Shown: positions 12,885 through 64,000 of the stretch, piece after piece
Numbering within the stretch: position 1 is the stretch's first letter
Layout of the letters: every line of letters starts with the position of its first letter
IMG/VR virus record: IMGVR_UViG_3300035703_002708
DNA from: a virus
Lineage: Duplodnaviria; Caudoviricetes
Length of the DNA: 64,000 nt
Strand: one strand, 5' to 3'
Program-made: the position numbers and the translations under genes
The notes under the pieces: generated by a model
The model's database searches: none
Seen by the model: only the letters and a program-made list of their open reading frames with translations
What the model was told of the DNA's origin: nothing

Positions 12885-12885
12885 A

Positions 12886-13947: not shown

Positions 13948-13948
13948 A

Positions 13949-17516: not shown

Positions 17517-17520
17517 ATTT

Positions 17521-18213: not shown

Positions 18214-18220
18214 AGTTTCA

Positions 18221-18931: not shown

Positions 18932-18934
18932 ATA

Positions 18935-20151: not shown

Positions 20152-20161
20152 TTTTAAAATT

Positions 20162-20938: not shown

Positions 20939-20942
20939 TTTT

Positions 20943-22546: not shown

Positions 22547-22547
22547 T

Positions 22548-23120: not shown

Positions 23121-23124
23121 AATT

Positions 23125-24459: not shown

Positions 24460-24462
24460 ATC

Positions 24463-29554: not shown

Positions 29555-29569
29555 ATAAAATAGATTTGT

Positions 29570-29602
29570 CAAAAATATAGAGATGTTATATTAGAATATC
29601 AA
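29570..29602 (-). promoter_or_regulatory. Bacteroidota-type promoter heading the glycan operon
   Basis: Minus strand TATTTTTG (29577-29570) with TTG 22 nt upstream, located right after a terminator. Confidence 0.55.
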
Positions 29603-47500: not shown

Positions 47501-50500
47501 TCAACTATAACTCCGTCTATTTCTCCAACATCAACTAAAACTCCAACAATAACACCAACCAAAACTCAAACTCCTACTATAACTCCAACTATAACAAAAA
47601 CACCAACTCAAATTGCCGCTTGTCCTGATTGTGATATAACAGGTAACACTTATTTAGATGGAGTAACTTTAACTCCTACGGTTACTAGTACAGTGACTCC
47701 ATCAATCACGCCTACATCAAGTATAACACCTTCAATTTCTCCAACAAAAACTCAAACACCAACAATAACACCAACTACATCGGTATCTCCATCTTTAACA
47801 CCAACATTATCGGTTTCACCGTCATTGACACCTAATGTAACCGTGACACCAACAATTACTCAAACACAAATTCAATTTTGTCCCGATTGTGATATCAGTG
47901 GAAATACATATTTGGACGGAGTCACATTGACTCCAACTGTAACGAGCACAATCACACCATCTTTTACACCAACACAAAGCCAAACTCCAACTGTAACACC
48001 TACAGTTACTACCACAAAAACACCAACTCAAACACAAACACCAACTATAACTCCAACTATAACGCAAACTCCAACTATAACTCCAACTATAACTCAAACT
48101 CAAGTATCATCGTGTCCTGACTGCGATATAACAGGAAACACGTATCTGGATGGTGTAACATTAACCCCAACAGTTACAAGTTCATTAACCCCTTCAATAA
48201 CACCAACATCCTCGGTAACACCAACCAATACTCAAACACCAACAATTACGCCTACTATAACACCGACACAAACTATTACGCCTACTATAACACCGACAAC
48301 GTCAATATCACCATCTTTAACGCCAACTAATACACAAACACCAACAATAACCAAAACTCAAATACAGTTCTGTCCTGATTGTGACATAAGTGGTAATACT
48401 TATTTGGATGGTGTAACTCTGACACCAACAGTCACTTCGACTATTACACCAACAAAAACCCCAACACCAACTAGACCCCAATTAACTTTCAGCGGATGTG
48501 ATGATGTTTTTTCAGGGCAATCATTTAACTTTAGTGGTTTTGGAATGGATTTCACCACGATTTATGATTTAAACCCTTCACTAATATATTCTTTCTCCGC
48601 AAATGGTATTGTGGGATGTTTTAGAATTGTCGAAGGGTTCACTCAAACGTACTATTACCTGACTTCAAACACTGGACAAACTTTTTCAACATGTGGAATA
48701 TGTTCCGAAAATAACCCCATTGAGTCTCAATACCCTGTCATACAACTTTGTCAGTGTAGTGGTTTTACAAATTGTATTTGGTCTAACGGAGATTTTACCT
48801 TCAATACGACAATATTATTTGGGGTGTCTAATCAAATTGGTTGTTGGAAAATGATTTCTACCGCAACAACAACCACTACGGCGGGATATGATGTTCCGAC
48901 AGGACAAACCTACGATAACTGTGTTGAATGTGAAAGTGGTTCGATAAACAGAGTCTTCAGTTCGTGTTGTGGTAATTATGTATTTAATATCGCCGAACCA
49001 CTACAAGGTATTATAGATAATTTATTTTTCGAAAAAATATACGAAATCAATACAGAAGAATTTTCAGGGTGTGCTAGAGTTGTAAGCGGGTTTTCAGAAA
49101 ATAATTATAATTTGACTTCATTAGATACTAATGAATATTTTGATACATGTTTGGATTGTTTAACCGCAACAACAGGTTCTAACATTTGTCCGACATTAAC
49201 ACCAACACCGACAGAAACACCAACACAAACCCCAACTACAACAATAACACCGACCGAGACTGTAACACCAACAATAACACCGACCGAGACTGTAACGCCA
49301 ACACAAACTCCTACCATTACACCGACTAATACTCAAACACCTACAATAACTCAAACAGAAACACCTACTCAGACTCCCACACCTACAGAAACAAAAACAC
49401 CAACTCCAACTCAAACGCCAACAATAACACCAACAATCACTCAAACACCGACTCAAACACCGACTCAAACACCAACACCTACTATAACACCAACGAAAGA
49501 ACCTGATTACGAAGTTTGGGAATTTAGGGATTGTTGTACAGAAACCGATTCGAAATATTACAGAGTATACAATTATCCAAGTGTGGTTTTGGACTCAGTC
49601 GCCCTTTCGGGTGTTTCAGCGCTTTACGATTATGGACTCACATACGTTGATTATAATAATTCCATATATGTGATTGCATCTTTTAACTTAAACGTTGTGG
49701 ATACAAGTACAAACACTCTGACACAAGTTATAGACTTCGGGAATGCGGTTGTGTCACCAACCTATTCTCCTGAAAACCAAAAATTATATGTTAGTGAATA
49801 CGCAATAGATAGATTAGTAGTTGTTGACGTTACCACTAATACTACGGCTTCAACAATCAATGTCGGTACTTACCCTGCGGTGTTATACTACAATTCAACT
49901 TATGAAAAGTTATACACACTAAATTTAAATTCAAATGACGTAACTGTTGTTGATACTACATCAGACACTGTACTCATAAACGTTAGTGTTAGCGGTTCAC
50001 CTATTAGTTATGTTTATAACCAAGACAACGAGTACTTATATATCTTCCACACAAATAGTAATTACGTTTCTGTTATTGACACTTTTGACGACAGTATTGT
50101 AACAACCATTAATTTGGGAGCTCAATGTGACTCTGGTATATATGACCCTACAAATCAACGCATTTATTGTTGGGGTTGGGGTGATGGTAATTACGTTAAA
50201 GTTATCAATACAAATACAAACACATTTTCAAACACAATAACGACAACATTACTCCCTTACAATAGACAATCACAAATAGTCGGAAATTACTTGTATATTC
50301 CTTGTAATTTAGGGATTGAAGTAATTGAACTTTCAAGTCAAACGTCATATACCTCAATAGTTGTTCCAGTGGGTTCGGTCGAACAAATAATCCTAAACCC
50401 AACCAACGGATATTTGTATGTAACCTTTACAAACTTAGGAGTTGTTATTATAGACCCATCGTCAAACGAAATAATCCAAACAAACACTAGTTTTTTAACC

Positions 50501-53500
50501 TCAGGATATTACATACCACAAACAGGTTATATATATTATAACGGTACGAATCCAAGTCCACAATTACAAGTTGTGGGTGAAATTTTCAGGTCTTGGAATG
50601 TAGGAGATGTTGTGAACGACTTATCAAACGGACAATGTTATTCTGCGTACCAATTGGTTTCACCATCGACACCATACTCACAAAATGTTTCAATTACATC
50701 TTACACCGATTGCTGGTCTTGTGTCCAAGCGATAGGTTGTCCTTTCATTTTCGAGGATTGTCAATCAGGAACAACACAATTTACAATTAATGTGATACCA
50801 ACAGGTCAAACACCTCAGTACGGAACAAATTACTCTTATGAATTAGTTTCAGGGGACACAACAGTTACCGCATATGGTGGAGACTCAGGAAATGAGGCGT
50901 GTTTGTTTTTCACAGAAATACCAACTTTGGGAATAGTTTCTATATATCCAGTATCACCAATCCAAAACCCCCTAATTGGAGATTGTATAACTTGTGAAAC
51001 ATCCTACCCAAGTTACCCAACACGAGCCAAATTTACAGATTGTTGCACTCAAACTGAAGAAATATATTTTAATATAAATTACCCAAGTATTCAGTGGATG
51101 ATAGGAGATGTTGTGTTATACACCATACCAAACAGTGATACAAAAAAATGTTACGAATTAATTGAATTTGATACTTTTAATACGTTCCCTGCTGGTGTAT
51201 GGAATTTCAATGACCCCGACTATAAGGGCTCACCATACAACTGTGAAAAATGTTTTGCCTTTAACAAATGTGAATGTCAAGAAGTTTTCACACCATATGA
51301 CTTTTTAAGTTGTTGTGACAATTCTACAATACTTGTTATGGGTATTTTACCTGAAAACTTTGTTTTAGGAAATGTGGTTATGTATGAAGGAGTACCATAC
51401 TCGATGATTGGTCCTTCAGTAAATCCGATTGATGGTGGTTGTTTTGCAGTTTTTGATTACGTTGACTGTACTGCGGCAAATAATGAGGAGGTTAATCCTT
51501 GCGGATTTAGTTTAGGTCAGTACGAATATTGTTGTAACACTTCTGAGATTATTGAAGTGTGGGAACCAGGTTATACAAACTCAAGTTATACAAACTTTTT
51601 ATATAATAATAAATGTTGGAATAGACGTGGTAATGGAGCAGGAACAACAGGCGAAACTATTTTTTGGACAGGATACACTTCGTGTGAAGAGTGTTATCCA
51701 AATTCAATAGGATATGTTTTAAGTTCTTGTACAATAGACGGTTTGACAATCACAGCACAAACTTCTGATTACAGTACATTGAATGTTAATAGTTTTTACA
51801 ATTTCACATCAGGAATTACTGATACTTTTTATTACGATTCAACATTTGTTTATGGTACAGGTTTTGGTTATACAGGTTCCTCTGTTGGTCAAGTAAATGA
51901 TATAATTTATTATCCACCAAAAGATGACCTATTCTTCGGTGGTATTTTCAACTCATATGATGGCACATCTGTAAATAACTATGCAAGAATCGACAATCTT
52001 GGAAATTTTGTTGGACTATTTGATGCAACTGGTTTAAATACTGGAGATACTTCCTTTATAAGTCAAATCGGAATTCAATCCAATGAAAAACTTATTGTTG
52101 TTGGTAATTTTACATCCTACAGTAGTAATAATGTTGGAAGAATAGTTAGGACTAATTCTGAGGGTGCTTATGACAACACATTTTCAGGTGACACTGGTTT
52201 TAACAATTTAGTTATCGATATTGCAATAAACAATTCAGACCAAATATATTGTGCGGGGGTCTTTTCAACGTATAGAAGTTTTTCGGCCATAGGATTAGCG
52301 AGATTAGGTCCTGACGGTATTTTTGACACAGGATTTACTTCTCATTTCACTTCCGCCACAAACCTAAAAATCAGAGAAATAGAAGTCCAAACTGATAATA
52401 AATTGATAGTTGTGGGGGACATTCCTAATTTATATAGTGGAATTACTTTCGGACCAATTAGAAGATTGAATTCTGATGGTAGTATAGATTTTTCTTTCTC
52501 TGGAACTGTTAGTGGCTTTGGTGGTTCTATTGCTTCGGTAGAAATACAAAATGATGGAAAAATAGTGTGTGGTGGTAATTTTACGACGGCAAACGCACAA
52601 ACCTTGTCAGGTATGGTTAGGTTTACAAGTGGTGGCACTGTTGATAATACCTTTAATGCTCAATCATGGATTTCGACCTATAACATAGAATCCATTTCAA
52701 AAATTAAACTTTTAGAAGACGGTAAATTTTTGGTATATGGTGGGGACTTAAGTCTCAATCGGTATGTGTTTTATATCGGAACTAATGGAGAGTTATTACA
52801 AACAATACAAATCAATGGAGGTGGTGTCTCTGATATAGAAAATTTATTACCTGGCAGTGGAAGATACGTCTTAGGTGGTAACTTTACAGGAGTAACGATA
52901 AATAGTGTTTCATACAGCGCCAATAGTGTATTTGCAATTGAACGTGTGGTTGAAAATTGTTTTAAAGTCATTGATACCGTAACTGGTTGTACTGCATCTG
53001 AGGCAACAATAGTAGTTGCGGGTACTGAATATGCTTCATGTGCAAGTTGTTTGATACCTCCTACAATGACACCAACACCAACTCAGACACCGACAATAAC
53101 TCCAACTAAAACACCAAGTCCAACACCAACACAGACTAAAACTCCTACGCAAACCCCAACTCAGACTCCAACTCAGACCCCTACGCAGACACAAACACCT
53201 ACCGAAACGCCGACACAAACGCCAACACAGACCCCTACTCAAACTCCTACTCAAACTCCTACTCAAACACAGACACCAACACAAACACAGACACCAACAC
53301 CGAGTAGATTCCCTGACTGTGTTGATTGTGAATTATCAGGACTTTCATATTATTCTGGTTACAGTGATTGTACATGTTATTCAATAACTATGACCACTCT
53401 TGCCGCGGTATTTGCGTACAACTGTTACGGAGTGTATACAGTAATTCTAACATCAGGAACATATTGTTTAAGAGAAATAGTTGACTCAAATGGAAATACA

Positions 53501-54139
53501 GTGATATCTCAAGGGTCATGTGAATCAGGTGTATGTGCTTCACCTACACCAACGCCAACACAGACACCAACGCCAACAATGACACCTAGTAAAACTCCTC
53601 CAATTACACCAACACCAACAAAGTTATGTTGTGCACCAACAATAACTAATGTAGACTTCGGAACCAATACAATTAGAAACTTCGATTGGATGGATGTGTT
53701 TTACACACAAGGATGTGGGTTAGCGGACGGATATATAGTGACACTACAAACAGCAAACGCTAGTTACATTTACAATGTACCCACACCAAATCCTGAAGGT
53801 TATTTCAGAGTTAATTACGTGGCATCAAGAGGTGGAATAATCTCAATTACAAAAGTCTGCGATAACGGAGCACTTTTGGTTTCTAACCAATATTATGTCG
53901 GTAAACCAGGGTCATCATTCCTACTCGTAAGATGGACAAGGTGCCCAAGTTTCGGAACTTCTATACCTTTCTATACATACGTTTACTCTAATGTACAACA
54001 GTCCCCATCTCCTAGTTCGATATACACACCATCAGGTAACCCACTTAATGGTGTTTACACCAGTGCCACTACGTTAAACGAAGGACCTATTGATAGATAC
54101 CTAAATGGTACATACTGGCAATCAGGTTCGTGCCCATAA
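41567..54139 (+). CDS. giant (4190 aa) putative virion fibre/adhesin: about 14 Cys-rich modules, two Delta-60-type and one YVTN-type beta-propellers, long Thr/Pro/Ser stalk
   Basis: QNDNKILVGGNF...IIRLNQDGSIDNTF repeats (about 42850-43920 and 51840-52940); TINVGTYP..LYYNS..EKLYTLN.NSNDVTVVDT repeats (49583-50593); TPT tracts. Confidence 0.8.
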   Translation: MCELILTGLTYSCGPYTIDLCDCQGGNCIKIIVTPDVGNLTGTITYPDGSSETYENGIIDINIPEGYSEDDCIIFTVFNSDGEPVVDKPEPPNFSQTPTPGLTPTPTKTINYVEPPRPGGGGPGIVLDFPSQTPTLTPTPSPATPTPTVSLTNTPTVTVTTTLTQTMTVTPTVTPTPLTPNLGFSSCCDNSFFSLKEETQFISTLDPTKTYYIQTNEFVGCVTIVSQRPTDFFEFISISSGYVDCVDCLSATTGNNFCPTQTPTPTITITPTRPIKAFKDCCENIYIGLTEESELLYSLDPNKSYYLVTDGYSGCTTIVNEQPTLYYNFVSILEYNDCDLCRIDKVGVICPSPTPTVTSTPTVTPTVTPTITSTPTITPTITPTFVEKFCYELSACTTNLVYSGCSPLSLNLDKTYQILLDIDEGSRNTKLQTGTGFNGSVFTVEYQNDNKILVGGNFSQYNGLSTSNEIIRLNQDGSIDNTFNYAGPSYVYINDIVEQNDGKILVGLGQVFGNSGNILQRLNSDGSLDGTFTPLTCPNGGAISKILILPDSTIVIGGTFNNPNSTFFHKLIRLFPDGSVDPFFGTGGFLPNLGVESVYDVDVLSDGTLICVGSFSEYKFISANKIVPILPNGTINVGFSYGSGFDDDVYAVKVLNDDSILVGGKFTQYNGTSSSCVIKLLSDGSIDTSFVVGSGFSGGVVYDITVDTSGDYIFVGDFTDYKNQTANGIIKLDSNGDIVTTFVTGIGLDNTGYKIDVNSDGSEIIVGGIFSSYNNCVNNNLVSIINSVTSVTDCFTIINSGSCSCCQNTIVSASTEYINCNDCLVLTPTPTPTPTITPTNTKTQTITPTISVTKTVTRTLNPTRTPTHTPTPTVTPTNLIPIFSSCCGTINIQFTDPNVALGLTIGEFYFVEADSYSACTLLTLGYPNLILDTATGVTTVTDCVTCITDYLPSGICPTPTQTPTSTLTPTPTILPIVLSSCCGNFLIDVSDQVELLETLSQYTETTFLFTSDDGFSACTSLARAVPNTLFNFTSFRVFIDCDACNTFLNGTVVCPTQTPTPTETKTSTPTLTPTITPTITVTNTKTPTITPTITITSSITPTETPTSTVTTTQTPTNTQTPTVTKTPLASPQETRTPTPTPTITPTETPTQTVTPTITNTQTVTTTETPTQTPTITVTKTETPTNTPTVTTTITNTATQTLTVTNTITPTETVTPTVSPTNTPSISATLTPGVTKTPTRTETPTQTPTNTITPTITQTPTQTKTPTQTQTPTKTETPTVTATKTPTKTQTPTITPTVTPTISVTPTITQTQIQFCPDCDITGNTYLDGVTLTPTVTSTITPTITQTSTVTPTVTLTNSVTPTQTQTNTQTPTITPTTTLTPTITPTITQTPTITQTQIQFCPDCDISGNTYLDGVTLTPTVTGTITPTITPTNTQTPSKTPTKTPTQTKTPTKTQTPTITPTKTPTQTKTPTKTPTQTKTPTKTPTPTITPTKTETPTVTPTKTPTKSVTPTITPTQTQTPTVTPTITQTQIQFCPDCDITGNTYLDGVTLTPTVTSTVTPSISPTATITPTITTTKTVTPTSTPTTSVSPSLTPTTSVSPSLTPTNTQTPTITQTQIQFCPDCDISGNTYLDGVTLTPTVTSTVTPSITPTNTKTPTITPTKTKTPTITPTKTVTNSQTPTKTVTNTPTQTPTLTRTPNEACPDCDITGNTYLDGVTLTPTVTSTITPSISPTSTITPSISPTSTITPTVTPTTSISPSLTPTTSISPSLTPTQTVTPTITQTQISTCPDCDISGNTYLDGVTLTPTVTSTITPSITPTTSVTPTITQTTTITPTITPTKTQTPTITPTITKTPTQIASCPDCDITGNTYLDGVTLTPTVTSTITPSISPTPTVTPSISPTSSVTPTVTPTTSISPSLTPTTSISPSLTPTNTQTPTITKTQISTCPDCDISGNTYLDGVTLTPTVTSTVTPSITLTSTITPSISPTSTKTPTITPTKTQTPTITPTITKTPTQIAACPDCDITGNTYLDGVTLTPTVTSTVTPSITPTSSITPSISPTKTQTPTITPTTSVSPSLTPTLSVSPSLTPNVTVTPTITQTQIQFCPDCDISGNTYLDGVTLTPTVTSTITPSFTPTQSQTPTVTPTVTTTKTPTQTQTPTITPTITQTPTITPTITQTQVSSCPDCDITGNTYLDGVTLTPTVTSSLTPSITPTSSVTPTNTQTPTITPTITPTQTITPTITPTTSISPSLTPTNTQTPTITKTQIQFCPDCDISGNTYLDGVTLTPTVTSTITPTKTPTPTRPQLTFSGCDDVFSGQSFNFSGFGMDFTTIYDLNPSLIYSFSANGIVGCFRIVEGFTQTYYYLTSNTGQTFSTCGICSENNPIESQYPVIQLCQCSGFTNCIWSNGDFTFNTTILFGVSNQIGCWKMISTATTTTTAGYDVPTGQTYDNCVECESGSINRVFSSCCGNYVFNIAEPLQGIIDNLFFEKIYEINTEEFSGCARVVSGFSENNYNLTSLDTNEYFDTCLDCLTATTGSNICPTLTPTPTETPTQTPTTTITPTETVTPTITPTETVTPTQTPTITPTNTQTPTITQTETPTQTPTPTETKTPTPTQTPTITPTITQTPTQTPTQTPTPTITPTKEPDYEVWEFRDCCTETDSKYYRVYNYPSVVLDSVALSGVSALYDYGLTYVDYNNSIYVIASFNLNVVDTSTNTLTQVIDFGNAVVSPTYSPENQKLYVSEYAIDRLVVVDVTTNTTASTINVGTYPAVLYYNSTYEKLYTLNLNSNDVTVVDTTSDTVLINVSVSGSPISYVYNQDNEYLYIFHTNSNYVSVIDTFDDSIVTTINLGAQCDSGIYDPTNQRIYCWGWGDGNYVKVINTNTNTFSNTITTTLLPYNRQSQIVGNYLYIPCNLGIEVIELSSQTSYTSIVVPVGSVEQIILNPTNGYLYVTFTNLGVVIIDPSSNEIIQTNTSFLTSGYYIPQTGYIYYNGTNPSPQLQVVGEIFRSWNVGDVVNDLSNGQCYSAYQLVSPSTPYSQNVSITSYTDCWSCVQAIGCPFIFEDCQSGTTQFTINVIPTGQTPQYGTNYSYELVSGDTTVTAYGGDSGNEACLFFTEIPTLGIVSIYPVSPIQNPLIGDCITCETSYPSYPTRAKFTDCCTQTEEIYFNINYPSIQWMIGDVVLYTIPNSDTKKCYELIEFDTFNTFPAGVWNFNDPDYKGSPYNCEKCFAFNKCECQEVFTPYDFLSCCDNSTILVMGILPENFVLGNVVMYEGVPYSMIGPSVNPIDGGCFAVFDYVDCTAANNEEVNPCGFSLGQYEYCCNTSEIIEVWEPGYTNSSYTNFLYNNKCWNRRGNGAGTTGETIFWTGYTSCEECYPNSIGYVLSSCTIDGLTITAQTSDYSTLNVNSFYNFTSGITDTFYYDSTFVYGTGFGYTGSSVGQVNDIIYYPPKDDLFFGGIFNSYDGTSVNNYARIDNLGNFVGLFDATGLNTGDTSFISQIGIQSNEKLIVVGNFTSYSSNNVGRIVRTNSEGAYDNTFSGDTGFNNLVIDIAINNSDQIYCAGVFSTYRSFSAIGLARLGPDGIFDTGFTSHFTSATNLKIREIEVQTDNKLIVVGDIPNLYSGITFGPIRRLNSDGSIDFSFSGTVSGFGGSIASVEIQNDGKIVCGGNFTTANAQTLSGMVRFTSGGTVDNTFNAQSWISTYNIESISKIKLLEDGKFLVYGGDLSLNRYVFYIGTNGELLQTIQINGGGVSDIENLLPGSGRYVLGGNFTGVTINSVSYSANSVFAIERVVENCFKVIDTVTGCTASEATIVVAGTEYASCASCLIPPTMTPTPTQTPTITPTKTPSPTPTQTKTPTQTPTQTPTQTPTQTQTPTETPTQTPTQTPTQTPTQTPTQTQTPTQTQTPTPSRFPDCVDCELSGLSYYSGYSDCTCYSITMTTLAAVFAYNCYGVYTVILTSGTYCLREIVDSNGNTVISQGSCESGVCASPTPTPTQTPTPTMTPSKTPPITPTPTKLCCAPTITNVDFGTNTIRNFDWMDVFYTQGCGLADGYIVTLQTANASYIYNVPTPNPEGYFRVNYVASRGGIISITKVCDNGALLVSNQYYVGKPGSSFLLVRWTRCPSFGTSIPFYTYVYSNVQQSPSPSSIYTPSGNPLNGVYTSATTLNEGPIDRYLNGTYWQSGSCP
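45509..48430 (+). repeat. 12 in-frame copies of CPDCDI(T/S)GNTYLDGVTLTPTVT separated by Thr/Pro/Ser linkers
   Basis: First Cys codons at 45509, 45767, 46169, 46427, 46673, 46931, 47147, 47405, 47621, 47879, 48113 and 48371. Confidence 0.95.
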
Positions 54140-54184: not shown

Positions 54185-56545
54185 ATGAACGCTTATATTT
54201 GCATTTCAAGTACTGGTAATACTCCTCTTACAGGATTTACCATTTTTCAAAACGTAGATAACTATCTTACACCGTTGGTTAGTAATGTACCATTGAGTAA
54301 TTTCTTATTACCAAATTGTCCATACGTAGTAACAAATGTTGACCCAAATACAACAATTATAAGATTATATGATTATGGTGCCGGTTGTTGTGTTGATATT
54401 CCATATACCGATGGATTTAACATATGTGACATATGTGTCCCACTAGGTTTCAGTGCCAATAGTTCGCCAAATGTCGGTTCGATATCTGTTGGACAACTAT
54501 CTGGTGGATGTGACCCGTCAATAGGTCAGTATTATTTGGAATGGTATGGTCCTGGTACAGGAAGTACTCAATTAGTATTCACTAGTGGATTCGGTGGACC
54601 AATACCGAATTTTAATTCATACCAAATGGAACATCCGCTTACAGGTACAAGTCAAGTTCCTCTTATTAGTGGGGCTTATAGACCTATAATTAGATATATC
54701 GATACTAATGGTATTATTTATTCTTGGGCTTTTGGTGCTTACGGGGATTGTTTTCAAAACAATCCTTTCATAGTTTTACCATACACGGCAACTAATGGTT
54801 CTGGAGTAGATTACGAACACGAATTAGTTTTCAGTGGAGACCCAAGACCAGGATTTACTCAATCAGGTACTATAGAGTTGTCAGGAACAACTAACTATGT
54901 ACCTTTCAGGTTCGATGGAAACCTAAGTAAAAAAATATTGAGAATCGAGTTTTCAGGAAGTGCTTATCCTGCACCACTACAATTAGAAAATGTATTACTA
55001 GGTTTTATACCTAACACAAACACATTAAATTTTGAAACAACACAATTTGCAAAAGATGGCGGCCCTAACGCCGATTTTTTCACTAGAGTATTATGTTTGA
55101 CAGGTCTAACAAGGAATGCTGGTGACACTCTTACATTTTATATTGATAGTCCCTATACTTCAGCAGAGAATTTTATTACAAATTGGAGTTTTTATTTTGA
55201 CCAATTACCTACCTTTGATTGTACTAGTTGTTTATTGGACACTCCTAAGTACCTTATAAGCGGTGGTTCGTTTAGTGCTTCAAGTGGTACTTGTTCTTCT
55301 ACAACTGTAACCTTTTCAGTGTCAGGATGCTCGTCAACCGTTGACCTCAATAAGGATTTATATAAATATATTTTCAAAAACAGTGGATTTGCATATCCTG
55401 GACCCTATGGGTATAGTGCTAACGCAAATGGTCTAATTCCTGTATCTGTTAATTTGGGTAACGGTATTTCAAAAGAATGTTATGTTGATTTATATTTACC
55501 TGAAAATGTACTTCCTAATGACTGTATTGATATGTCACTTAGCGCCGGTGCACAAGCTCTGGCCAAAATGTATGTTAATATATCAAACACAAGTCCTAAT
55601 ACAAAATTAATTGAATGGTTTTGGACTGATTTTGCAACTAACCCAGTTTCCGCTAATTTGTTCAATTACATCCAACAAAGTTGGACTGATGTGATAACTC
55701 AGTTTACACCTAACGACTATCCAAGTACCGATTATAGATATTATCGAGCTCTTTACTTCCAAGCACCAACAGGTACTGGTGGTTCTACTCAATGTAACGA
55801 TGAGGCCTACATAGGTTGTTTCTTAAATCAAAATACAACCACCGCAACTTTTACTGTGACACCTAGTACAGTACCTAATATCAATATTTATAAAATATCG
55901 ATACAGGGTTCGTTTTTCGCAAATCCACAATTACTTTTGAATTCCTATGGTCCTTGTGATGATGCAAACACTTGTAAATCAATCAATGGTGACCAATATC
56001 AAAACATCGCTAAAAAGGTACAGGATTTTATAAGTGCAACTACAGTTAATATTACTGATACTGGTCTGGTTGGTTTCACACCCAGCCCAATGCCTGGTAA
56101 ACCCATCTCACCAGACTTCTACACCAAAAACCCGTTTCAGGTTTATTATCCCATTTTTATAAACTCACCTGGTAACCCTCAAGGTTCTACCGCAAATACT
56201 AGCAATTTCGCAAGTGTTTACCAATATCAAATGAAGACGTATCCATCATCAGGTGCTTCACCTAATTCACAAACTGTGATTTCTGGTTTGACTGCTGATA
56301 CCTGTAGTTCATTGACAGGTAAGACTTACAATCCTTATAGTGCGGATTCAACTAACTATAGAAGTACTTATCAGAAATATCACTTCTATTATGATATAGT
56401 CGATAATCCAAATGTTACTTTAGGTTATAGTATTTATGCAAATGATATTTTATCAAACGGTCAACCTTCGGGTACTCAAACTTTGATTGCAACAGGTACC
56501 GGCTCAACATTAACAATTATAAATTCTTCCTACTTCACACCATAA
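54185..56545 (+). CDS. Cys-containing beta-rich putative structural protein (paralogue of 56559..58742)
   Basis: Shares STGNT..., CPYV, GCC.DIP, WYGP, HPLTG and FSG..Y..PL..E with the next gene. Confidence 0.75.
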   Translation: MNAYICISSTGNTPLTGFTIFQNVDNYLTPLVSNVPLSNFLLPNCPYVVTNVDPNTTIIRLYDYGAGCCVDIPYTDGFNICDICVPLGFSANSSPNVGSISVGQLSGGCDPSIGQYYLEWYGPGTGSTQLVFTSGFGGPIPNFNSYQMEHPLTGTSQVPLISGAYRPIIRYIDTNGIIYSWAFGAYGDCFQNNPFIVLPYTATNGSGVDYEHELVFSGDPRPGFTQSGTIELSGTTNYVPFRFDGNLSKKILRIEFSGSAYPAPLQLENVLLGFIPNTNTLNFETTQFAKDGGPNADFFTRVLCLTGLTRNAGDTLTFYIDSPYTSAENFITNWSFYFDQLPTFDCTSCLLDTPKYLISGGSFSASSGTCSSTTVTFSVSGCSSTVDLNKDLYKYIFKNSGFAYPGPYGYSANANGLIPVSVNLGNGISKECYVDLYLPENVLPNDCIDMSLSAGAQALAKMYVNISNTSPNTKLIEWFWTDFATNPVSANLFNYIQQSWTDVITQFTPNDYPSTDYRYYRALYFQAPTGTGGSTQCNDEAYIGCFLNQNTTTATFTVTPSTVPNINIYKISIQGSFFANPQLLLNSYGPCDDANTCKSINGDQYQNIAKKVQDFISATTVNITDTGLVGFTPSPMPGKPISPDFYTKNPFQVYYPIFINSPGNPQGSTANTSNFASVYQYQMKTYPSSGASPNSQTVISGLTADTCSSLTGKTYNPYSADSTNYRSTYQKYHFYYDIVDNPNVTLGYSIYANDILSNGQPSGTQTLIATGTGSTLTIINSSYFTP

Positions 56546-56558
56546 AAATTAAAACTTT

Positions 56559-58742
56559 ATGCCATTTTCCATAGATTTATGTCTTACTAATACAGGAAAC
56601 ACGGTATTGGGTCCAACCTTTTTAGTTTTTTCTGATACGAATCCTAACGTACCTTTCACAACAATAAATTTATCAGATATTGTTCAGACTGAATGTCCTT
56701 ATGTTTTGAGTGGTGTGCCTGATAATGCAACATCTATAAGGTTATTAAATTTACCAACAGGGTGTTGTATTGAAATTCCGATAACCGGAAATTTGGATTT
56801 ATGTATAATGTGTGATTTAGGATTCAACGTTTATTCGGCAAATACCGTCAGTGTAATTACCGCAGGTAATTTGACTGGTAGTTGTGACGATAATATTACA
56901 GACTATGTCGTTAATTGGTATGGACCTGATAGTAGTACCAACATTCAGTTCACAAGTGGAAAAGGAAATACTTTTACTTATGATTGGATACATCCGTTAA
57001 CAGGAAACTCATCGGTTTTTGCACCAGCCGGCGTCTATACCCCAAAAATAGAATCCATAATACTAAATGGAGAACTTCTCCAAGAAGATTATGGAGTTTT
57101 ATCAAATTGTTTTTCTGCGGTTACTGTTGAAGCATTCAACTGTTCGAATGGAAATAATACCAATCCACCCTCACTTGCACTTACGGCTTATTCACATGTA
57201 ATTGAGTTTAGTCAACAATCACAAGGAAATGTACCACCAAATTTATCGGCGATATTCGAGTTATCTGCAAACACAAATTTCTTGGCCTTTGCTTTTAAGG
57301 GGGCAAGTGTACCAGATTCACTAAAAATTTCTTTTTCAGGTGCTAGCTACTCTACACCATTAGTTATGGAGTATATCACGGTTGGTGATAACCTGACGAC
57401 ATCAAATCTAAACCCAAATTCATTTCCAAAAAGTGCTGACACCCTATTCTTTTTTTCTAAGGTTCTTAATTTACAAGATACTGTAACGGTATTACCTGGC
57501 GATTATTTGATAATCGAGGTAGAACCAAATCCGACAAATCCAAATACTGAATGGACATTGTATTTAAAATGTTTAGAAACTTTCAATTGTGTCAAATGTA
57601 TAGACACAAACACACCACACAAAATATTACAAAGTTCCATAACAGGTATTACTGGCAGTTGCGGTCAGTTACAAATTCAATTTGTTTTGACGGGATGTTC
57701 AAACAGTCAAAATAATTCAGAGGATGTGTTCAAATACTTTTTGAATGATGGATTAACCCAATCCCCACTTGCAAACAATGGGATAACTGTTGGGTCTCAA
57801 TATACAACATTTAATTTATTTTATAGTGCGCTTACATGTAGTTTTAATCAAGCGCCAGGTTTCCCTTATCAAATTTCATGTTATATCTCAGGTTCCGACA
57901 ATATAAATTTTAGAACTTATAGACCAAACGTTAATACTAGAATTCTTGAATTTAAATTTGAAGGACTTTCGGACTTCAATGCTTACCTTTCCAACTTTTT
58001 AGATGCTATGCAGTATAGTGGTTCGTCAGACCCAACAAACATAACTTACTATAGTAGATTATTTCTAAGTGTACCGGCGCCTAGTGGTGGTACACTTTGT
58101 GGTGACAATACCACACGACTTGATTTTACATTACACCCACCTACGTTAGATTACGCAACAGGAACCACTATTGAATTTCCATATAATTATACTTTTTCAA
58201 TTACGTCAACAACCATATCAAACGGTGCCTCATATAATATTTGTGACCAAAATTGTTTGAGTTTTTTAGATGGTACAGTAAATACGGTAAATGCTAGTGT
58301 TACAGGTTCTAGTCTCGATATAACAGGGACAACGACAGTCTCGTCAAGATACCAATATCCATTTTATAATATTTGGAGATTTACAAGTAGCACAACTAAT
58401 CAAACGTCTACATTTTATAATTTCTCAATAAGGTTTCCGACATATTCAAATGCAACCTATGTGGCGTCAGGAACGCCATTACAAAACATTTCAACAATGT
58501 CCGCCACAACCTGTGATTTTTCATCATCCATGTATCAAGACATCTTTGCCGGGGTTACCGAATGGTATCAATATGTTGGTTCTTATTTGCTGCAAAGAAC
58601 AAATCCGAATAATCCTAATGATTTTAGAATCATGGCTTCGGTTATAACTAATGGCCAACCAAGTTTTTTATATGATGTTTTGGCTTACGGAATTTCAGGA
58701 GGCACCGTTTATGCTTCTAACCCAACCTACATTCAATCTTAG
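56559..58742 (+). CDS. Cys-containing beta-rich putative structural protein (paralogue of 54185..56545)
   Basis: Collinear motifs with the preceding gene over most of its length. Confidence 0.75.
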   Translation: MPFSIDLCLTNTGNTVLGPTFLVFSDTNPNVPFTTINLSDIVQTECPYVLSGVPDNATSIRLLNLPTGCCIEIPITGNLDLCIMCDLGFNVYSANTVSVITAGNLTGSCDDNITDYVVNWYGPDSSTNIQFTSGKGNTFTYDWIHPLTGNSSVFAPAGVYTPKIESIILNGELLQEDYGVLSNCFSAVTVEAFNCSNGNNTNPPSLALTAYSHVIEFSQQSQGNVPPNLSAIFELSANTNFLAFAFKGASVPDSLKISFSGASYSTPLVMEYITVGDNLTTSNLNPNSFPKSADTLFFFSKVLNLQDTVTVLPGDYLIIEVEPNPTNPNTEWTLYLKCLETFNCVKCIDTNTPHKILQSSITGITGSCGQLQIQFVLTGCSNSQNNSEDVFKYFLNDGLTQSPLANNGITVGSQYTTFNLFYSALTCSFNQAPGFPYQISCYISGSDNINFRTYRPNVNTRILEFKFEGLSDFNAYLSNFLDAMQYSGSSDPTNITYYSRLFLSVPAPSGGTLCGDNTTRLDFTLHPPTLDYATGTTIEFPYNYTFSITSTTISNGASYNICDQNCLSFLDGTVNTVNASVTGSSLDITGTTTVSSRYQYPFYNIWRFTSSTTNQTSTFYNFSIRFPTYSNATYVASGTPLQNISTMSATTCDFSSSMYQDIFAGVTEWYQYVGSYLLQRTNPNNPNDFRIMASVITNGQPSFLYDVLAYGISGGTVYASNPTYIQS

Positions 58743-58812
58743 AAAATTAATTTCCTTCTATTTATTTGTCCAACTCATCTCCTATTTTTCTATCAAAATA
58801 GAACAATAATTT

Positions 58813-60063
58813 ATGAAAATATTTATTCAAATTGCCTCTTACAGAGACCCCGAATTAGAAAAAACAGTTAAATCCGCAATTGAGAATGCAAAAAAACCGA
58901 AAAATTTAGTTTTCGGAATTGCTCGTCAATATCATCCTGATGACAAGTTCGACACTTTGGACGAATACAGAAAGGACAAAAGATTTAGAATTTTGGACAT
59001 TCCATATTTGGAATCACAAGGAACTTGTTGGGCAAGAAACCAAATCCAACAATTATATAAAGGTGAAGAATACACCTTACAAATTGATTCCCACATGAGA
59101 TTTGCACCAAATTGGGATGAAGAAATGATTGGTATGGTTAAGCAACTTCAGAAAAAAGGGCACAAAAAACCTTTACTGACAGGATACGTATCATCATTTA
59201 ATCCCGATAATGACCCACAAGAAAGAATTCAAGAACCTTGGAGAATGGTTTTTGATAGGTTTATACCTGAAGGGGCGGTTTTTTTCTTACCTGAAACAAT
59301 TCCTGGTTGGCAAACCCTTACTGAACCTATCACCGCAAGATTTTATTCCGCACACTTTGGTTTTTCACTTGGAAGTTTTGCCGTTGACGTACAGCATGAC
59401 CCCGATTATTACTTTCACGGTGAAGAAATCTCAATCGCGGCAAGAGCATATACTCACGGATATGATTTGTTCCACCCACACAAAGTATTGATTTGGCATG
59501 AATACACAAGAAAAGGAAGAACAAAACAGTGGGACGACGATACAGACTGGGTTACTAAAAACAACAGATGTCATTTAAAAAACAGGAAACTTTTTTCTAT
59601 GGACGGCGAAGTATATAATCCAGAAGAATTTGGTATCTATGGTTTCGGAACTGAACGTAGTTTAAGAGATTATGAAAAATATTCGGGTCTTCTTTTCGAA
59701 AGAAGGGCCATCCAACAATATACAATAGATAAAAACTATCCACCAAATCCATATAATTTTGATAACGAAGAAGATTGGAAAAATAGTTTCGCATCAATAT
59801 TCAAACATTGTATAGATATCGGTTATCATCAGGTACCTGAAACAGATTATGAGTTTTGGGTTGTTGCTTTCCATAATGAATCGGATGAAACAATATACAG
59901 AAAAGATGCCGACGCAGACGAAATTAGACGAATGAAGAACGACCCTGATGGTTACTGTAAAGTTTGGAGGGAATTCCAAACATCACATAAACCTAAGTAT
60001 TGGGTTGTTTGGCCATACTCAACAACCAAAGGTTGGTGTGAAAGAATAACAGGAACTTTATAA
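58813..60063 (+). CDS. GT60-like polypeptide/hydroxyproline alpha-GlcNAc transferase homologue with extra C-terminal domain
   Basis: IFIQIASYRDPEL, QGTCWAR, YKGEEYTLQIDSHMRF..NWD, FHGEEI...RAYTHGYDLFHP...WHEY. Confidence 0.85.
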   Translation: MKIFIQIASYRDPELEKTVKSAIENAKKPKNLVFGIARQYHPDDKFDTLDEYRKDKRFRILDIPYLESQGTCWARNQIQQLYKGEEYTLQIDSHMRFAPNWDEEMIGMVKQLQKKGHKKPLLTGYVSSFNPDNDPQERIQEPWRMVFDRFIPEGAVFFLPETIPGWQTLTEPITARFYSAHFGFSLGSFAVDVQHDPDYYFHGEEISIAARAYTHGYDLFHPHKVLIWHEYTRKGRTKQWDDDTDWVTKNNRCHLKNRKLFSMDGEVYNPEEFGIYGFGTERSLRDYEKYSGLLFERRAIQQYTIDKNYPPNPYNFDNEEDWKNSFASIFKHCIDIGYHQVPETDYEFWVVAFHNESDETIYRKDADADEIRRMKNDPDGYCKVWREFQTSHKPKYWVVWPYSTTKGWCERITGTL

Positions 60064-60065
60064 GT

Positions 60066-60905
60066 ATGATTGAGATACATAATGAATGGGACCCATTTGA
60101 CAATGGAGAGTGGTTCGCAACGGAAAGAAAAAATTTCGGACATAAGTTGTTTGCATATATTATCCCACGAATAATGTCGGAATTATTGAATTACAATTTA
60201 ATTGTTCCAGAAAATTCATACATTGGAAAAATAAACAAAGAAAATGGTAATGAATTTGAGAAAGTTTTATTTCCATATACTAGCATAACCGACAGATTGT
60301 CTTTCACTGACAATGTTGTGGAGCTCAATGACGAATCACTTAATGGTAGTGATATCGAGACATTTGTTAAAAATATAAATGGAAATAAAATATATTCTAA
60401 ATGTCACTGTTCTAATTACAACTACATAAAACCTCACAAGAGTTTGGTTAGAGAAATCCTAAAAGATTTGATAGTACCGAAATCTCACGAAAATGACATA
60501 TTACTTTTTTTGAGGAAAAGTAGAAGAGCACATACATATCGTCTACCTGATAGTTACTATTTGAATATTTTAGAAAACGAAAGTTTTGACAAGATGTACT
60601 TATCGGTGGATGATATTGACAGACACTACAACCTATATCAAAATTTAAAAAAGTATGACCCAATAATACTTGAGGGTGATATACTCGAAAATTTTAAAAA
60701 GGCCACATCATTCAACAAAATGATTTGTTCTCAGGGACAATTTGCGTTTTGGGCAGCTTGGCTGTCTGATGCGGACAAAATATATTGGCCAATAACAAAT
60801 GCAGGGCCTAATGCAGGACCCGAAGTACATCGTCACCACTTAAATTTAAAAGTCGACGACGAAGAAAGGTATACATTTATTAACATAGAAAACATTTATC
60901 ATTGA
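60066..60905 (+). CDS. GT11-like (alpha-1,2-fucosyltransferase-related) protein, divergent
   Basis: NFGHKLFAY (cf. GLGNQMFQY), LPDSYY, and ICSQGQFAFWAAWLS (cf. SNSTFSWWAAYL); the HxR motif is replaced by FLRK. Confidence 0.6.
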   Translation: MIEIHNEWDPFDNGEWFATERKNFGHKLFAYIIPRIMSELLNYNLIVPENSYIGKINKENGNEFEKVLFPYTSITDRLSFTDNVVELNDESLNGSDIETFVKNINGNKIYSKCHCSNYNYIKPHKSLVREILKDLIVPKSHENDILLFLRKSRRAHTYRLPDSYYLNILENESFDKMYLSVDDIDRHYNLYQNLKKYDPIILEGDILENFKKATSFNKMICSQGQFAFWAAWLSDADKIYWPITNAGPNAGPEVHRHHLNLKVDDEERYTFINIENIYH

Positions 60906-61870
60906 TGAAAAAAAAAATTAAAATAACGAGAGGAAATTTTTGTAACAATTGTAGTTATTACTTGGTTAATTATTTAGTAAATTTACTCAAAAAAAATTAT
61001 GATGTAGAAATTTCTAACGACAACCCCGACATAGTTTTTTTCTCCAATCAATTCGTGAGTACAAGTAATTTGGACGAATACACCGGTGAAAATGCTAAAA
61101 CAGAATACGATTTTCCTAACGCAAAGAAAGTTTTCATAAGCGGTGAGGCGGTGGCCAATTACGATTATTATACGACAAAAAGTGACCAACACTTTACAAT
61201 TGGTAAACCTGGTGACTTGAATAACGAAAGGCATTTGAATATTTCATATTTTTCTATTGTTTCGGCATGGCAATTATGGGATGAATGTAAAATGTTCGAT
61301 AGTCCATTTGGTTGGTTAACGCAAAAGAAAAACTTGGGAGAAATTTTAAAAAATAAAAAATATTTTGCGGCAATAGTACAACAATCGACAAATGACTATA
61401 GAAGAGGTTTGTTTGATAACCTTTGTACCATAGAAAAGGTTAGGTCTTGTGGAGGTTTTGAAACTAATATACCTGATTGTTCTTTAGCGAACAGAGGTAG
61501 AACAGAAGCTGAAGCTTACGGCAACAAAGTAAAGTTTCTCTCAGAACATTTTTTTTCCTTACAGGTGCAATCAACGACTTTAGATTGGTTCACCCAAGAA
61601 AAAATAATCCAAGCATATGCCGCAAACACAATACCAATTTTTTGGGGTAACCCACAGATTTTAGATGATGGATTTAATCCTGAATCATTTATTAATTGTC
61701 ATAATTATTCTTCAATAGAAGAGGTTACAGAAAAAGTTAGAGAAATCTATTCTGATAAAAATAAGGTCTATAAAATGTTATTGGAACCTGTCTTTGTTGA
61801 TAACAAGTTACCGAAAGAGTTTGATGAAGATGTTTTGATTGAGTTTTTAGATAAAATTGTTAAACATTAA
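60905..61870 (+). CDS. GT10-like (alpha-1,3-fucosyltransferase family) protein
   Basis: PDIVF, KKVFISGE, and FSLQVQST..WFTQEKIIQAYAANTIPIFWG (GT10 motif), FINCHNY. Confidence 0.8.
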   Translation: MKKKIKITRGNFCNNCSYYLVNYLVNLLKKNYDVEISNDNPDIVFFSNQFVSTSNLDEYTGENAKTEYDFPNAKKVFISGEAVANYDYYTTKSDQHFTIGKPGDLNNERHLNISYFSIVSAWQLWDECKMFDSPFGWLTQKKNLGEILKNKKYFAAIVQQSTNDYRRGLFDNLCTIEKVRSCGGFETNIPDCSLANRGRTEAEAYGNKVKFLSEHFFSLQVQSTTLDWFTQEKIIQAYAANTIPIFWGNPQILDDGFNPESFINCHNYSSIEEVTEKVREIYSDKNKVYKMLLEPVFVDNKLPKEFDEDVLIEFLDKIVKH

Positions 61871-61875
61871 ATATT

Positions 61876-63312
61876 ATGGAGAATTACAAAAACGTTTCCG
61901 CAGAAAACATTTTGAAAAATTTGAGAGACAGAATAAATCAAGAAAATATAACTTTTTTACAGATAGGTGCAAACGACGGTTATACAAATGACATAGCTAG
62001 TCTAATTTTAAAACCATCAGATAAAGGAGTTTTCGTGGAACCCATAAAAGAAAGTTTCGAAAAGTTAATCTCGAACAAAAAAAACTTCTCGAACTCAAAG
62101 TTCGCTAACTTGGCAATATTACCAGATGAACTGCAAGATTACAACGAGATGAATTTGTTATCCGATTGCCCCTCTAATTTAGGTGCATCATTCAGTTTAT
62201 TTAATCGAGGTAGAATAATCAAAACAGAAAAAGTGGATGTGTCAACACCATTGGAATTTCTATACAGTTATAGAATAAACGATTTGGATTTTTTATTTTG
62301 TAACGCTTCGACATTGGACCATTTAATTGTTTTGGACACCGTGAAACGAATACAACCAAAAGTTTTATTCTTCAACACTTGTTATTGGTGTAACAATGAT
62401 TATGAGTTGGAATTAACAGATACTGTAAAGATAACCATTCCATCAAGAAAAAAAATGAAGGAATTTTTAAATAATTTAAATTATGAGGTTATCGATTTAT
62501 GGGAGAATTCGGAAAACAAAAGAGAAGACATATTGGCATTTAAAAAAGAATTGAATGGGGATTTCGTCGAGATAATAGAACCTAAAGTAATCGAAAAATT
62601 AGAACCAAAACAAGTTAGTATTAATCACAATTTAGAAAAGGTAATTTCATTCACACTTTTCGGTAACAACTTAAAATACTATGTTGGTGCGGAAAAAAAT
62701 ATTGAAATTAATAAAAAACTTCTACCTGATTGGACAAACGTAATATACTACCACAAAGACAGTATTTTACCAGGTTATGTAGAAAAATTGACAAACTTGG
62801 GGGCAAAACTAATCGATGTTAGTTCAATTATTATATCGGGAAAAGAAAGCATCCAATTCCAATATTTTTGGAGATTTTTCAGTTTTTTCGAAGAAGGGAT
62901 TTCTATTGTTAGAGATTTAGATAGTAGATTTTCAGAGAGAGAAGTTAAATACATAAACGAATGGTTGAAATCAAGTAAGAATTACTTTATCATACGAGAC
63001 CATCCTTGGCATTCACAAGTACCTAGTGGATTGTTCGGTATCAAAAATAAAGATGAAGAATTCAAAACACATTTCGAAGACTTTATAAAAAATTCAGAAA
63101 TCAGATGGGGAAGCGACCAAGATATACTATTCCAATTCATGGAAAGAAAAAACAAAAATGAAGTTTTTTATTGTGGATTTGATGATAATGAAAACTATAT
63201 TCCAAGAGACAATAAAAATTTCTTTATAGGTATGCAAATAGACGAAAATGAACAACCACTAAACCCAAGTGCGACTGTTGCATTGGAATTTCTAGAAAGT
63301 ATTAATTTATAA
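61876..63312 (+). CDS. fusion of a FkbM-like methyltransferase domain and a putative glycosyltransferase-like domain
   Basis: FLQIGANDG, FVEPI in the N-half; VISFTLFG..KYYVGA, WRFF, IVRDLDSR, IIRDHPWH, GSDQDIL in the C-half. Confidence 0.7.
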   Translation: MENYKNVSAENILKNLRDRINQENITFLQIGANDGYTNDIASLILKPSDKGVFVEPIKESFEKLISNKKNFSNSKFANLAILPDELQDYNEMNLLSDCPSNLGASFSLFNRGRIIKTEKVDVSTPLEFLYSYRINDLDFLFCNASTLDHLIVLDTVKRIQPKVLFFNTCYWCNNDYELELTDTVKITIPSRKKMKEFLNNLNYEVIDLWENSENKREDILAFKKELNGDFVEIIEPKVIEKLEPKQVSINHNLEKVISFTLFGNNLKYYVGAEKNIEINKKLLPDWTNVIYYHKDSILPGYVEKLTNLGAKLIDVSSIIISGKESIQFQYFWRFFSFFEEGISIVRDLDSRFSEREVKYINEWLKSSKNYFIIRDHPWHSQVPSGLFGIKNKDEEFKTHFEDFIKNSEIRWGSDQDILFQFMERKNKNEVFYCGFDDNENYIPRDNKNFFIGMQIDENEQPLNPSATVALEFLESINL

Positions 63313-63314
63313 TA

Positions 63315-64000
63315 ATGGCTTATTCTTATTGTTTCTGTACAGTTGCAGTCGGTCAACCCTACCTTGATTCTGCTTTGACTTTTGCTAAAGTGCTAAATGA
63401 AAAGTCAAAAGGACATCATATGATTATAGTCACTGATGAAACAGTGGAAGAAAAGATAGACAATACCACCATCACCCTATTACCCAACGACAAAAAAAAA
63501 TTTATAGGACCTTGGTTCAATTGGATGTTGAAATACTATCCAATTAAAGTGGCCAAAGATTTGGGTTTCGATTTCATCGTTTTTTTGGACGCTGATTGGA
63601 GACTAACATCATTTTATGACGAAAATGGATTGAGAAACGTTTTCAAATTTATGGTTGAGTCCGATGTCGACATATGTTTTGAAAGACCATACAGGATAGG
63701 TAGTGCGAAAAAAGATGGGCGACATTGTATTTTTTCACATAAAGTCGAATTTTATAATCTATTGGAAACTGAAGAGTACGATGACGGACACGCATGTAAT
63801 GAACAATTCTTGATTTTAAAAAAATCCGAAAAGTTGAACTTGTTCGTATCTAAGTTTGAAGAACTCCATGATAAAAGTTCCGAACACAATATTTGGCCAT
63901 TTTGTGAAGGATTAGAAATTGGAATGTCAATGTCATTCGCAAAAATGAATATGAATTGGGGTGGATGGGAACCACATTTGAGAAACATGTTTGAATTTAC
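63315..64000 (+). CDS. putative GT-A-type glycosyltransferase, truncated by window end (absent from the ORF track)
   Basis: ATG 63315 gives MAYSYCFCTVAVGQPYLDSA...FIVFLDADW..., open to base 64000, with a DxD motif. Confidence 0.65.
   Translation, partial: MAYSYCFCTVAVGQPYLDSALTFAKVLNEKSKGHHMIIVTDETVEEKIDNTTITLLPNDKKKFIGPWFNWMLKYYPIKVAKDLGFDFIVFLDADWRLTSFYDENGLRNVFKFMVESDVDICFERPYRIGSAKKDGRHCIFSHKVEFYNLLETEEYDDGHACNEQFLILKKSEKLNLFVSKFEELHDKSSEHNIWPFCEGLEIGMSMSFAKMNMNWGGWEPHLRNMFEF

Follow-up and report, generated by a model that had tools for sequence, protein, structure and literature searches.

A soluble GT60-family glycosyltransferase encoded near Thr/Pro-rich giant proteins of an uncultured phage: a candidate initiator of mucin-type O-glycans

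The 64,000-nucleotide stretch of viral DNA considered here (Duplodnaviria; Caudoviricetes; IMG/VR record IMGVR_UViG_3300035703_002708; "the window" means this whole stretch) encodes three giant proteins filled with threonine/proline (Thr/Pro, TP) tracts and, further along the same strand, a predicted glycosyltransferase (GT) at positions 58813-60063; this arrangement raises the question whether a phage could carry its own initiating enzyme for mucin-like O-glycans. The preliminary description had placed the enzyme in family GT60 and had cast it as the priming enzyme for the Thr/Pro stalks. With moderate confidence, and from sequence comparisons, we consider it most likely that the enzyme primes O-glycans on the Thr/Pro tracts of the phage's own giant proteins. 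This proposed priming role, with its putative acceptor and donor sugar, draws support from comparative genomics and from virion glycoproteins reported for a cultured relative.

The first step, the family assignment, was borne out by a hidden Markov model search, in which the GT60 model PF11397 matched with E 6.4e-67 and 226.9 bits (cut-off 21); phrog_24687 matched residues 2-413 (E 1e-169), and an NCBIfam search returned nothing meaningful. A family-level match to GT27 was not obtained, the only hit being Glycos_transf_2 with 19.8 bits, under its cut-off of 23.3. Judged by sequence and predicted fold, the product of 58813-60063 is a genuine GT60 member, and the gene is predicted to encode a metal-dependent, retaining GT-A glycosyltransferase of this family. 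The features of the gene are as follows.

58813-60063, plus strand: GT60-family glycosyltransferase gene, an ATG-to-stop open reading frame (ORF) of 416 amino acids (aa), soluble, with matches to PF11397 and phrog_24687
58813-59790, plus strand: GT-A catalytic domain and linker helices (residues 1-326), from Foldseek matches to Gnt1 and polypeptide N-acetylgalactosamine (GalNAc) transferases (ppGalNAc-Ts)
58831-58854, plus strand: IASYRDPE motif, residues 7-14, after strand beta-1 at the nucleotide-binding end of the GT-A fold, from conservation
59086-59094, plus strand: DxH metal-binding motif, D92-S93-H94, from conservation
59416-59451, plus strand: HGEEISIAARAY motif, residues 202-213, with E204 and E205 invariant, from conservation
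59494-59505, plus strand: WHEY, residues 228-231, with His229 as candidate C-terminal metal-binding His, from conservation
59791-60060, plus strand: C-terminal FN3/Ig-like beta-sandwich domain (residues 327-416), from a stand-alone model and structural matches

The motifs that had been quoted for this enzyme were all located in the 416-aa protein: IASYRDPE at residues 7-14, LQIDSH at 89-94, WHEY at 228-231, and GEE twice, at 84-86 and again within HGEEISIAARAY at 202-213; the C-terminal strings FKHCIDIG (330-337), FWVVAFH (348-354), and YWVVWPYSTTKGW (396-408) were found as well. In an alignment of 44 diverse sequences, reaching down to 35% identity, at least 90% conservation was observed for each of I7, A8, Y10, R11, and D12 of the first motif, for each of D92, S93, and H94, and for W228 and Y231, while E204, E205, R211, and H229 form invariant columns; the HGEE sequence is thus among the conserved stretches. 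The HGEEISIAARAY stretch presumably resembles the Gal/GalNAc-T motif of GT27. The DxH motif in place of DxD is specific to GT27 and GT60 among GT-A enzymes, and in GT27 metal binding is aided by a C-terminal His (PMC7185993); in the predicted fold His229 sits where this residue would be expected and is a candidate for the same role. No solved structure was matched by sequence, whether the query was the protein or the 44-sequence profile, which leaves residue-level mapping without an experimental GT60 template.

The protein contains no hydrophobic segment along its 416 residues (the Kyte-Doolittle 19-residue mean peaks at 0.88), and in the model its N-terminus opens straight into strand beta-1, with no type II membrane anchor; both features argue that the enzyme is soluble and cytoplasmic, as is Gnt1. 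The full-length AlphaFold model, built on the 44 diverse sequences, reached a predicted local distance difference test score (pLDDT) of 95.7 and a predicted template modelling (TM) score of 0.90. Among reviewed AlphaFold models, Dictyostelium Gnt1 (Q8T1C6), the founding member of GT60, was the top match (Foldseek E 9.6e-26, TM 0.66, 25% identity, residues 2-323), and the matches ranked after it were, among those listed, all polypeptide GalNAc-transferases; among solved structures, ppGalNAc-Ts occupied nearly all of the top ranks (E about 1e-9, 10-17% structural identity). The first rank of the hydroxyproline-specific Gnt1, together with the Pro-rich composition of the tracts, could point to a Gnt1-style transfer of N-acetylglucosamine (GlcNAc) onto hydroxyproline, following hydroxylation of tract prolines. 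We regard this route as very improbable: no PF13640-type prolyl hydroxylase was found in five GT60-bearing phage genomes, whereas control genomes did match, none was found among the window proteins scanned, and Gnt1 was the sole GT60 enzyme among the listed reviewed-set matches, so that its top rank says little on acceptor type.

The PF11397 match stops at residue 295 and the structural match to Gnt1 at residue 323, and what follows is a real additional domain of about 90 aa, as the preliminary description had proposed: residues 327-416 fold alone (pLDDT 92.3) into a seven-stranded sandwich in which Trp makes up 5.6% of the sequence (five of 90 residues). Among solved structures, FN3 modules come closest to it (VIA-align Z 7.7, root-mean-square deviation 2.7 A over 78 residues), where a Z of this level means, by the guidance of the tool, a shared fold and nothing more. 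A Foldseek search with the domain gave no match at E 0.001 or better. Its close matches consist solely of the same region of other PF11397 proteins, mostly viral, with one PF11397 entry in AlphaFold DB (TM 0.83) and two clusters, 80-97% viral, in the ESM Atlas (TM 0.90-0.94); because PF11397 proteins are its sole close matches, the domain is an appendage specific to this family. Of 150 family representatives taken at 50% identity, 79 have it, always behind a catalytic domain and at times duplicated. The lectin role that had been envisaged for it was not supported, since structure prediction yields an FN3/Ig-like sandwich, with no ricin beta-trefoil among the matches, and in structural searches the domain resembled no specific carbohydrate-binding module and gave no sign of sugar binding; a ricin-type lectin is reported to be missing from GT60 enzymes (PMC8724618). 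The modelled domain might grip an extended repetitive substrate or serve processivity.

The subfamily defined by this architecture, soluble and with the FN3-like C-terminal domain, is plentiful in phages and is found in bacteria too. More than 7000 metagenomic homologues of the protein were recovered, in 4616 clusters at 50% identity; the PF11397 model also detects homologues in related viral records, and full-length homologues with the C-terminal domain are present in many bacterial phyla. Some family members (representatives P0122, P0123, P0124, P0132, P0136, P0162, and P0229) are polyproteins of 1300-2500 aa in which three or four GT60 catalytic domains stand in tandem and the C-terminal domain is absent.

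The next question is what such an enzyme would act on, and for this the arrangement of the locus has to be considered.

32276-37264, plus strand: candidate acceptor of 1662 aa, 521 of them in Thr/Pro tracts (composition, tract map)
37291-41217, plus strand: candidate acceptor of 1308 aa, 261 of them in Thr/Pro tracts (composition, tract map)
41567-54139, plus strand: candidate acceptor of 4190 aa, 1629 of them in Thr/Pro tracts, that also has DUF5122 beta-propeller repeats (composition, tract map, Pfam)
54185-56545 and 56559-58742, plus strand: two tract-free paralogues (786 and 727 aa) that separate the GT gene from the giant genes
60066-64000, plus strand: packed downstream genes, namely GT11-like (weak), GT10 fucosyltransferase-like, a 478-aa protein, and TET-associated-glycosyltransferase-like (TAGT-like; weak), candidate chain extenders

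The window contains 88 matches to TPTxTPT, where none would be expected, and all of them lie inside the three giant genes. The 4190-aa protein also contains at least five DUF5122 beta-propeller repeats (E 1e-41), as well as repeated Cys-containing modules that stand between the tracts. Its tracts are written in varied synonymous codons and are therefore maintained at the protein level. PHROG and Pfam scans of the giant proteins returned only a low-complexity match to phrog_15511 and the DUF5122 repeats. The wording "immediately downstream," which had been used for the position of the enzyme relative to the mucin-like genes, is inexact: the last Thr/Pro gene ends at 54139, and the two tract-free paralogues (4.7 kb) intervene. 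These paralogues have no Pfam or PHROG match, and their homologues, at 34% identity, occur in just two of 80 related loci.

Across the 80 related viral loci, the transferase is always present (median identity 74%), whereas its surroundings change: the four downstream genes recur, at 30-50% identity, in 3-13 of the loci, and no locus has counterparts of the globular parts of the giant proteins. By this comparison, the transferase is a conserved anchor amid two fast-changing flanks, a pattern that fits an initiator whose partners in chain extension vary. About 35 of 78 related viral loci have a tract-rich gene as the immediate upstream neighbor of the transferase, whereas the immediate downstream neighbor is tract-rich in 0 of 76. 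Five long GT-bearing records have no adjacent tract; in four of these, among them all three with a completeness of at least 90%, a tract occurs elsewhere (TPTxTPTxTPT), and the reversed control pattern was absent from all five. Conversely, PF11397 is encoded by 16 of 41 viral records whose sole selection criterion was a TPTx4 tract. Relatives of the window phage served for the checks across whole genomes. Among 50,697 isolate phage records, PF11397 was found in four, the jumbo phages XacN1, Xoo-sp13, CM1, and RAS14; the XacN1 and RAS14 homologues each have, at a distance of a few kb, a giant gene whose product exceeds 3100 aa and which in XacN1 comes after annotated baseplate wedge genes, and each of the two giant proteins has a short Thr/Pro tract near its C-terminus. 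Genome-wide, TPTxTPT matches number 51 in XacN1 and 22 in RAS14, at several loci, with 0 for the reversed control; five other jumbo phages (RaK2, GAP32, CBB, Atu_ph07, and phiKZ; 1.85 Mb in total) have neither TPTxTPT matches nor PF11397.

In relatives below about 70% identity, a protein of roughly 560 aa occupies the upstream slot. A gene of about 550-566 aa was also seen to end the variable cassette in two related loci (L001, 15935-17608; L002, 17705-19405) and in XacN1 (ORF330), as was a 545-aa gene in RAS14; an HtrL_YibB family match was recorded for the L001 and L002 genes only. The protein of about 560 aa may represent a second conserved end of the cassette.

The association with Thr/Pro tracts reappears in bacteria. 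In seven Burkholderiales loci, a VgrG-type spike gene lies within 10 kb of a GT60 homologue; in three of them, the Phage_GPD, Phage_base_V, and gp5 C-terminal domains were identified by Pfam (E about 1e-91), and these three spikes finish in a (TP)n tail of 50-136 residues, 1-4 kb from the homologue.

L259 12270-15131, L286 15052-17535, and L245 13903-16461, minus strand: VgrG spikes with (TP)n tails, in Ralstonia, Achromobacter, and Paraherbaspirillum

In the other four loci, the tail failed the tract filter. The tract scan of 80 bacterial loci was noisy, as high-GC DNA gives overlapping spurious ORFs, and just the Pfam-confirmed VgrG cases were counted. Like a phage appendage, a VgrG spike is generally taken to be synthesized and assembled in the cytoplasm before extrusion, and this is a place where a soluble transferase could reach it. 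The Burkholderiales pairing appears, from these gene neighborhoods, to be an independent lineage for the association between GT60 and TP tracts.

We infer from these data an acceptor, a donor sugar, a linkage, an order of action, and a place of the giant proteins in the virion. Inside the infected cell, ahead of assembly or release of the giant proteins, the enzyme would move a first sugar, probably GlcNAc from UDP-GlcNAc, onto Thr (or Ser) hydroxyls in the Thr/Pro tracts, with the FN3-like domain perhaps holding the extended repetitive substrate; the neighboring variable glycosyltransferases and methyltransferases would then lengthen the chain. When the enzyme was modelled in complex with 50 residues of TP sequence from the 4190-aa protein, the score was 0.00 and the partner was disordered, which is no verdict either way.

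Several observations weigh against this reading, and some of them favor a protein O-glycosyltransferase with other phage acceptors, such as proteins of the capsid, sheath, or baseplate, or the two Ser/Thr-rich paralogues of 786 and 727 aa. To our knowledge, prokaryotic and viral GT60 proteins are without any demonstrated activity, acceptor, or sugar. In the window, the two tract-free genes separate the GT gene from the tract genes, and the directly upstream gene has no TP tract; many relatives are likewise without an adjacent tract gene, the adjacency being mostly lost below about 70% identity. Of the 41 TP-tract viral records, 25, many of them fragments, are without PF11397, and TP tracts therefore do not require it. 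No recognized virion domain was found in the giant proteins by PHROG and Pfam scans, and the phage associations are confounded by common ancestry in one jumbo-phage group and are not independent events. The polysaccharide GT-A enzymes TarS, RmlT, GlfT2, and K4CP score only slightly weaker in the structural search. The glycoprotein bands of XacN1 virions are not assigned to proteins, carrying neither a protein identity nor a link to the GT60 homologue ORF334 in the original report (PMC5852040). Other phage acceptors are nevertheless quite unlikely, given the co-occurrence of TP tract and enzyme at the genome level, which recurs with the (TP)n tails of bacterial VgrG, and given that the characterized Ser/Thr-directed GT60 and GT27 enzymes use Thr/Pro-rich mucin-like sequence.

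The polysaccharide enzymes in the fold list also bear on a non-protein acceptor, that is, a polysaccharide or lipid-linked glycan, for example in remodelling of the host envelope or in a glycan attached by another route. The window has two large glycan clusters with GT2, GT6, GT10, and GT1/4-like genes and sugar-nucleotide enzymes, and a review of jumbo phages interprets such clusters as surface-polysaccharide systems (PMC7824862). Yet all characterized GT60 enzymes, and the nearest structural neighbors of this one, modify polypeptides; the enzyme is soluble; no flippase, polymerase, or membrane-bound priming-transferase family appeared in the Pfam scans of window genes, which covered part of the ORFs; and the association with TP tracts would not follow from a polysaccharide role. 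We therefore consider such an acceptor unlikely, and retain priming on the Thr/Pro tracts as the preferred function.

If the tracts are primed by this enzyme, the neighboring genes are candidates for chain extension. From the last giant gene to the four genes after the GT gene, all genes lie on one strand, with gaps of 45, 13, and 70 nt upstream of the GT gene and 2, -4, 5, and 2 nt downstream. Between 53.9 and 64 kb, scans for sigma-70 promoters (49 vs. 43.8 in shuffles) and for terminators (9 vs. 5.9 in shuffles) showed no excess; gene spacing is therefore the sole basis for an operon structure. The 70-nt gap ahead of the GT gene (58743-58812) is AT-rich and includes TATTTAT. In the downstream genes, Pfam gave GT10 above the cut-off (E 7.6e-8) and GT11 (E 0.008) and TAGT (E 0.022) below it. 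This last match, in the final gene of the window, is one reason to consider glycosylation of DNA bases in evasion of host restriction, phage GTs being often DNA-modifying (PMC5852040); the idea is extremely improbable, as DNA is not a known substrate of any GT60, the surroundings of the GT gene showed neither a hydroxymethylase nor a TET/JBP gene, and that gene is flanked by fibre-like proteins and glycan-extending enzymes. Candidates for the extension of primed tracts are the GT10- and GT11-like genes downstream, together with GT6, GT2, and methyltransferase genes of the cluster on the opposite strand. GT6, GT10, and GT11 are the families that make ABH and Lewis antigens on mucins. The glycan genes of the window occupy two stretches, 12078-29572 on the minus strand and 60066-61870 on the plus strand, with GT6 (PF03414, E 8e-35), GT10-like, weak GT11-like, and GT2 members; TOD1/MUCI70-like and Nucleotid_trans genes, three FkbM-type methyltransferases, and two GDP-mannose-dehydratase-like enzymes are found in the same stretches.

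The source of the window appears to be an uncultured jumbo phage with a Bacteroidota-type host, as the following features suggest by way of a lead and not a demonstration. The window has a G+C content of about 33% and carries PhoH, dUTPase, and PolB-type exonuclease genes; close homologues of the transferase occur on viral contigs of up to 322 kb, next to family B DNA polymerase. The nearest matches in the cellular genome collection (L220-L225; 63-68% identity, about 34% G+C) are short contigs that had been assigned to Saprospiraceae or other Bacteroidia by binning, and are probably phage contigs co-binned with their host, which makes them a host lead. A 425-aa protein (4421-5698, minus strand) has a type IX secretion C-terminal sorting domain (Por_Secre_tail, E 2e-11); it hints at a Bacteroidota host and at possible export via host machinery. 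A NAGPA-like phosphodiester glycosidase domain (E 7e-9) adjoins a peptidoglycan-binding, endolysin-like gene (1444-2157, minus strand; 2235-3401, plus strand).

A wider proposal can be put forward tentatively, as possible and just short of probable: jumbo phages and some type VI spikes would run a cytoplasmic mucin-type O-glycosylation in which a soluble GT60 with its own FN3-like accessory domain densely primes the Thr residues of (TP)n and TPTxT stalks and swappable GT6/GT10/GT11-type enzymes build ABH/Lewis-like fucosylated caps. Mucin-type O-glycosylation is regarded as a process of the eukaryotic secretory pathway, and we know of GT60 enzymes characterized in protists only. Literature searches combining GT60 or PF11397 with phage gave nothing relevant, and no report of mucin-type O-glycosylation in phages or bacteria was found; existing catalogues list the gene family as a generic phage glycosyltransferase, and for its link to mucin-like tracts, or for a prokaryotic or viral mucin-type initiator, no report was found in the literature searched. 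If the soluble viral GT60 does prime Thr/Pro stalks, tailed phages would themselves encode a mucin-like glycan coat, carried by the virion on its largest appendages, which would probably affect how they adsorb, how well they resist proteases, and how they interact with hosts and surfaces. In that case, thousands of uncharacterized prokaryotic and viral GT60 genes would gain a function, the GT60/GT27 initiators of eukaryotic mucins would fall within a prokaryotic and viral radiation, and a simple soluble model would be at hand for initiating transferases that act on dense repeats.

Virus-encoded glycosylation of the virion is known from mycobacteriophages, as it is from chloroviruses. For the chlorovirus PBCV-1, work cited in PMC5852040 describes virus-encoded cytoplasmic GTs that decorate the capsid, a virion protein, independently of host secretory glycosylation. 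Both systems differ from the present one in their GT families and acceptor sequences. We know of no GT60 initiator and no mucin-like Thr/Pro repeats reported for either. The Golgi polypeptide alpha-GlcNAc-transferases of Dictyostelium and Trypanosoma cruzi, which are type II membrane proteins, also belong to GT60, and their activity equals the one proposed here; the phage enzyme, in contrast, has no membrane anchor. These Golgi enzymes prime mucin-type O-glycans by adding alpha-GlcNAc onto Thr in Thr/Pro-rich mucin-like sequence (PMC3769586; PMC8724618), and they are without a C-terminal accessory domain (PMC8724618). The GT27 ppGalNAc-transferases (human GalNAc-T2 and Toxoplasma GalNAc-T3, for example) gave the best matches among solved structures and share with the phage enzyme the layout of a catalytic domain followed by a C-terminal accessory domain, as well as the DxH motif and, in the proposed function, Ser/Thr O-glycosylation (PMC7185993), with His229 as the candidate counterpart of their C-terminal His; they differ in their ricin-type beta-trefoil lectin, where the phage enzyme has an FN3-like sandwich, and in their membrane anchor and use of UDP-GalNAc. 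Gnt1, the Skp1-hydroxyproline alpha-GlcNAc-transferase, is of the same Pfam family and is likewise soluble and cytoplasmic, with a DxH motif, and it acts on a protein, as is proposed for the phage enzyme; yet it has no FN3-like domain and modifies one hydroxyproline of one protein, whereas the candidate acceptors of the phage offer hundreds of repeat Thr residues. Among cultured phages, the Xanthomonas jumbo phage XacN1 encodes a homologue, ORF334, with 47% identity over the full length, C-terminal domain included; as in the window, a giant gene and GT genes lie close to it, and TPTxTPT tracts are many. ORF334 was labelled just "glycosyltransferase family protein," with no tie to GT60 or to Thr/Pro tracts (PMC5852040). 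It is one of only two GTs that XacN1 encodes; purified XacN1 virions contain at least two Schiff-positive glycoprotein bands, and the authors proposed that the phage GTs make the virion glycoproteins (PMC5852040).

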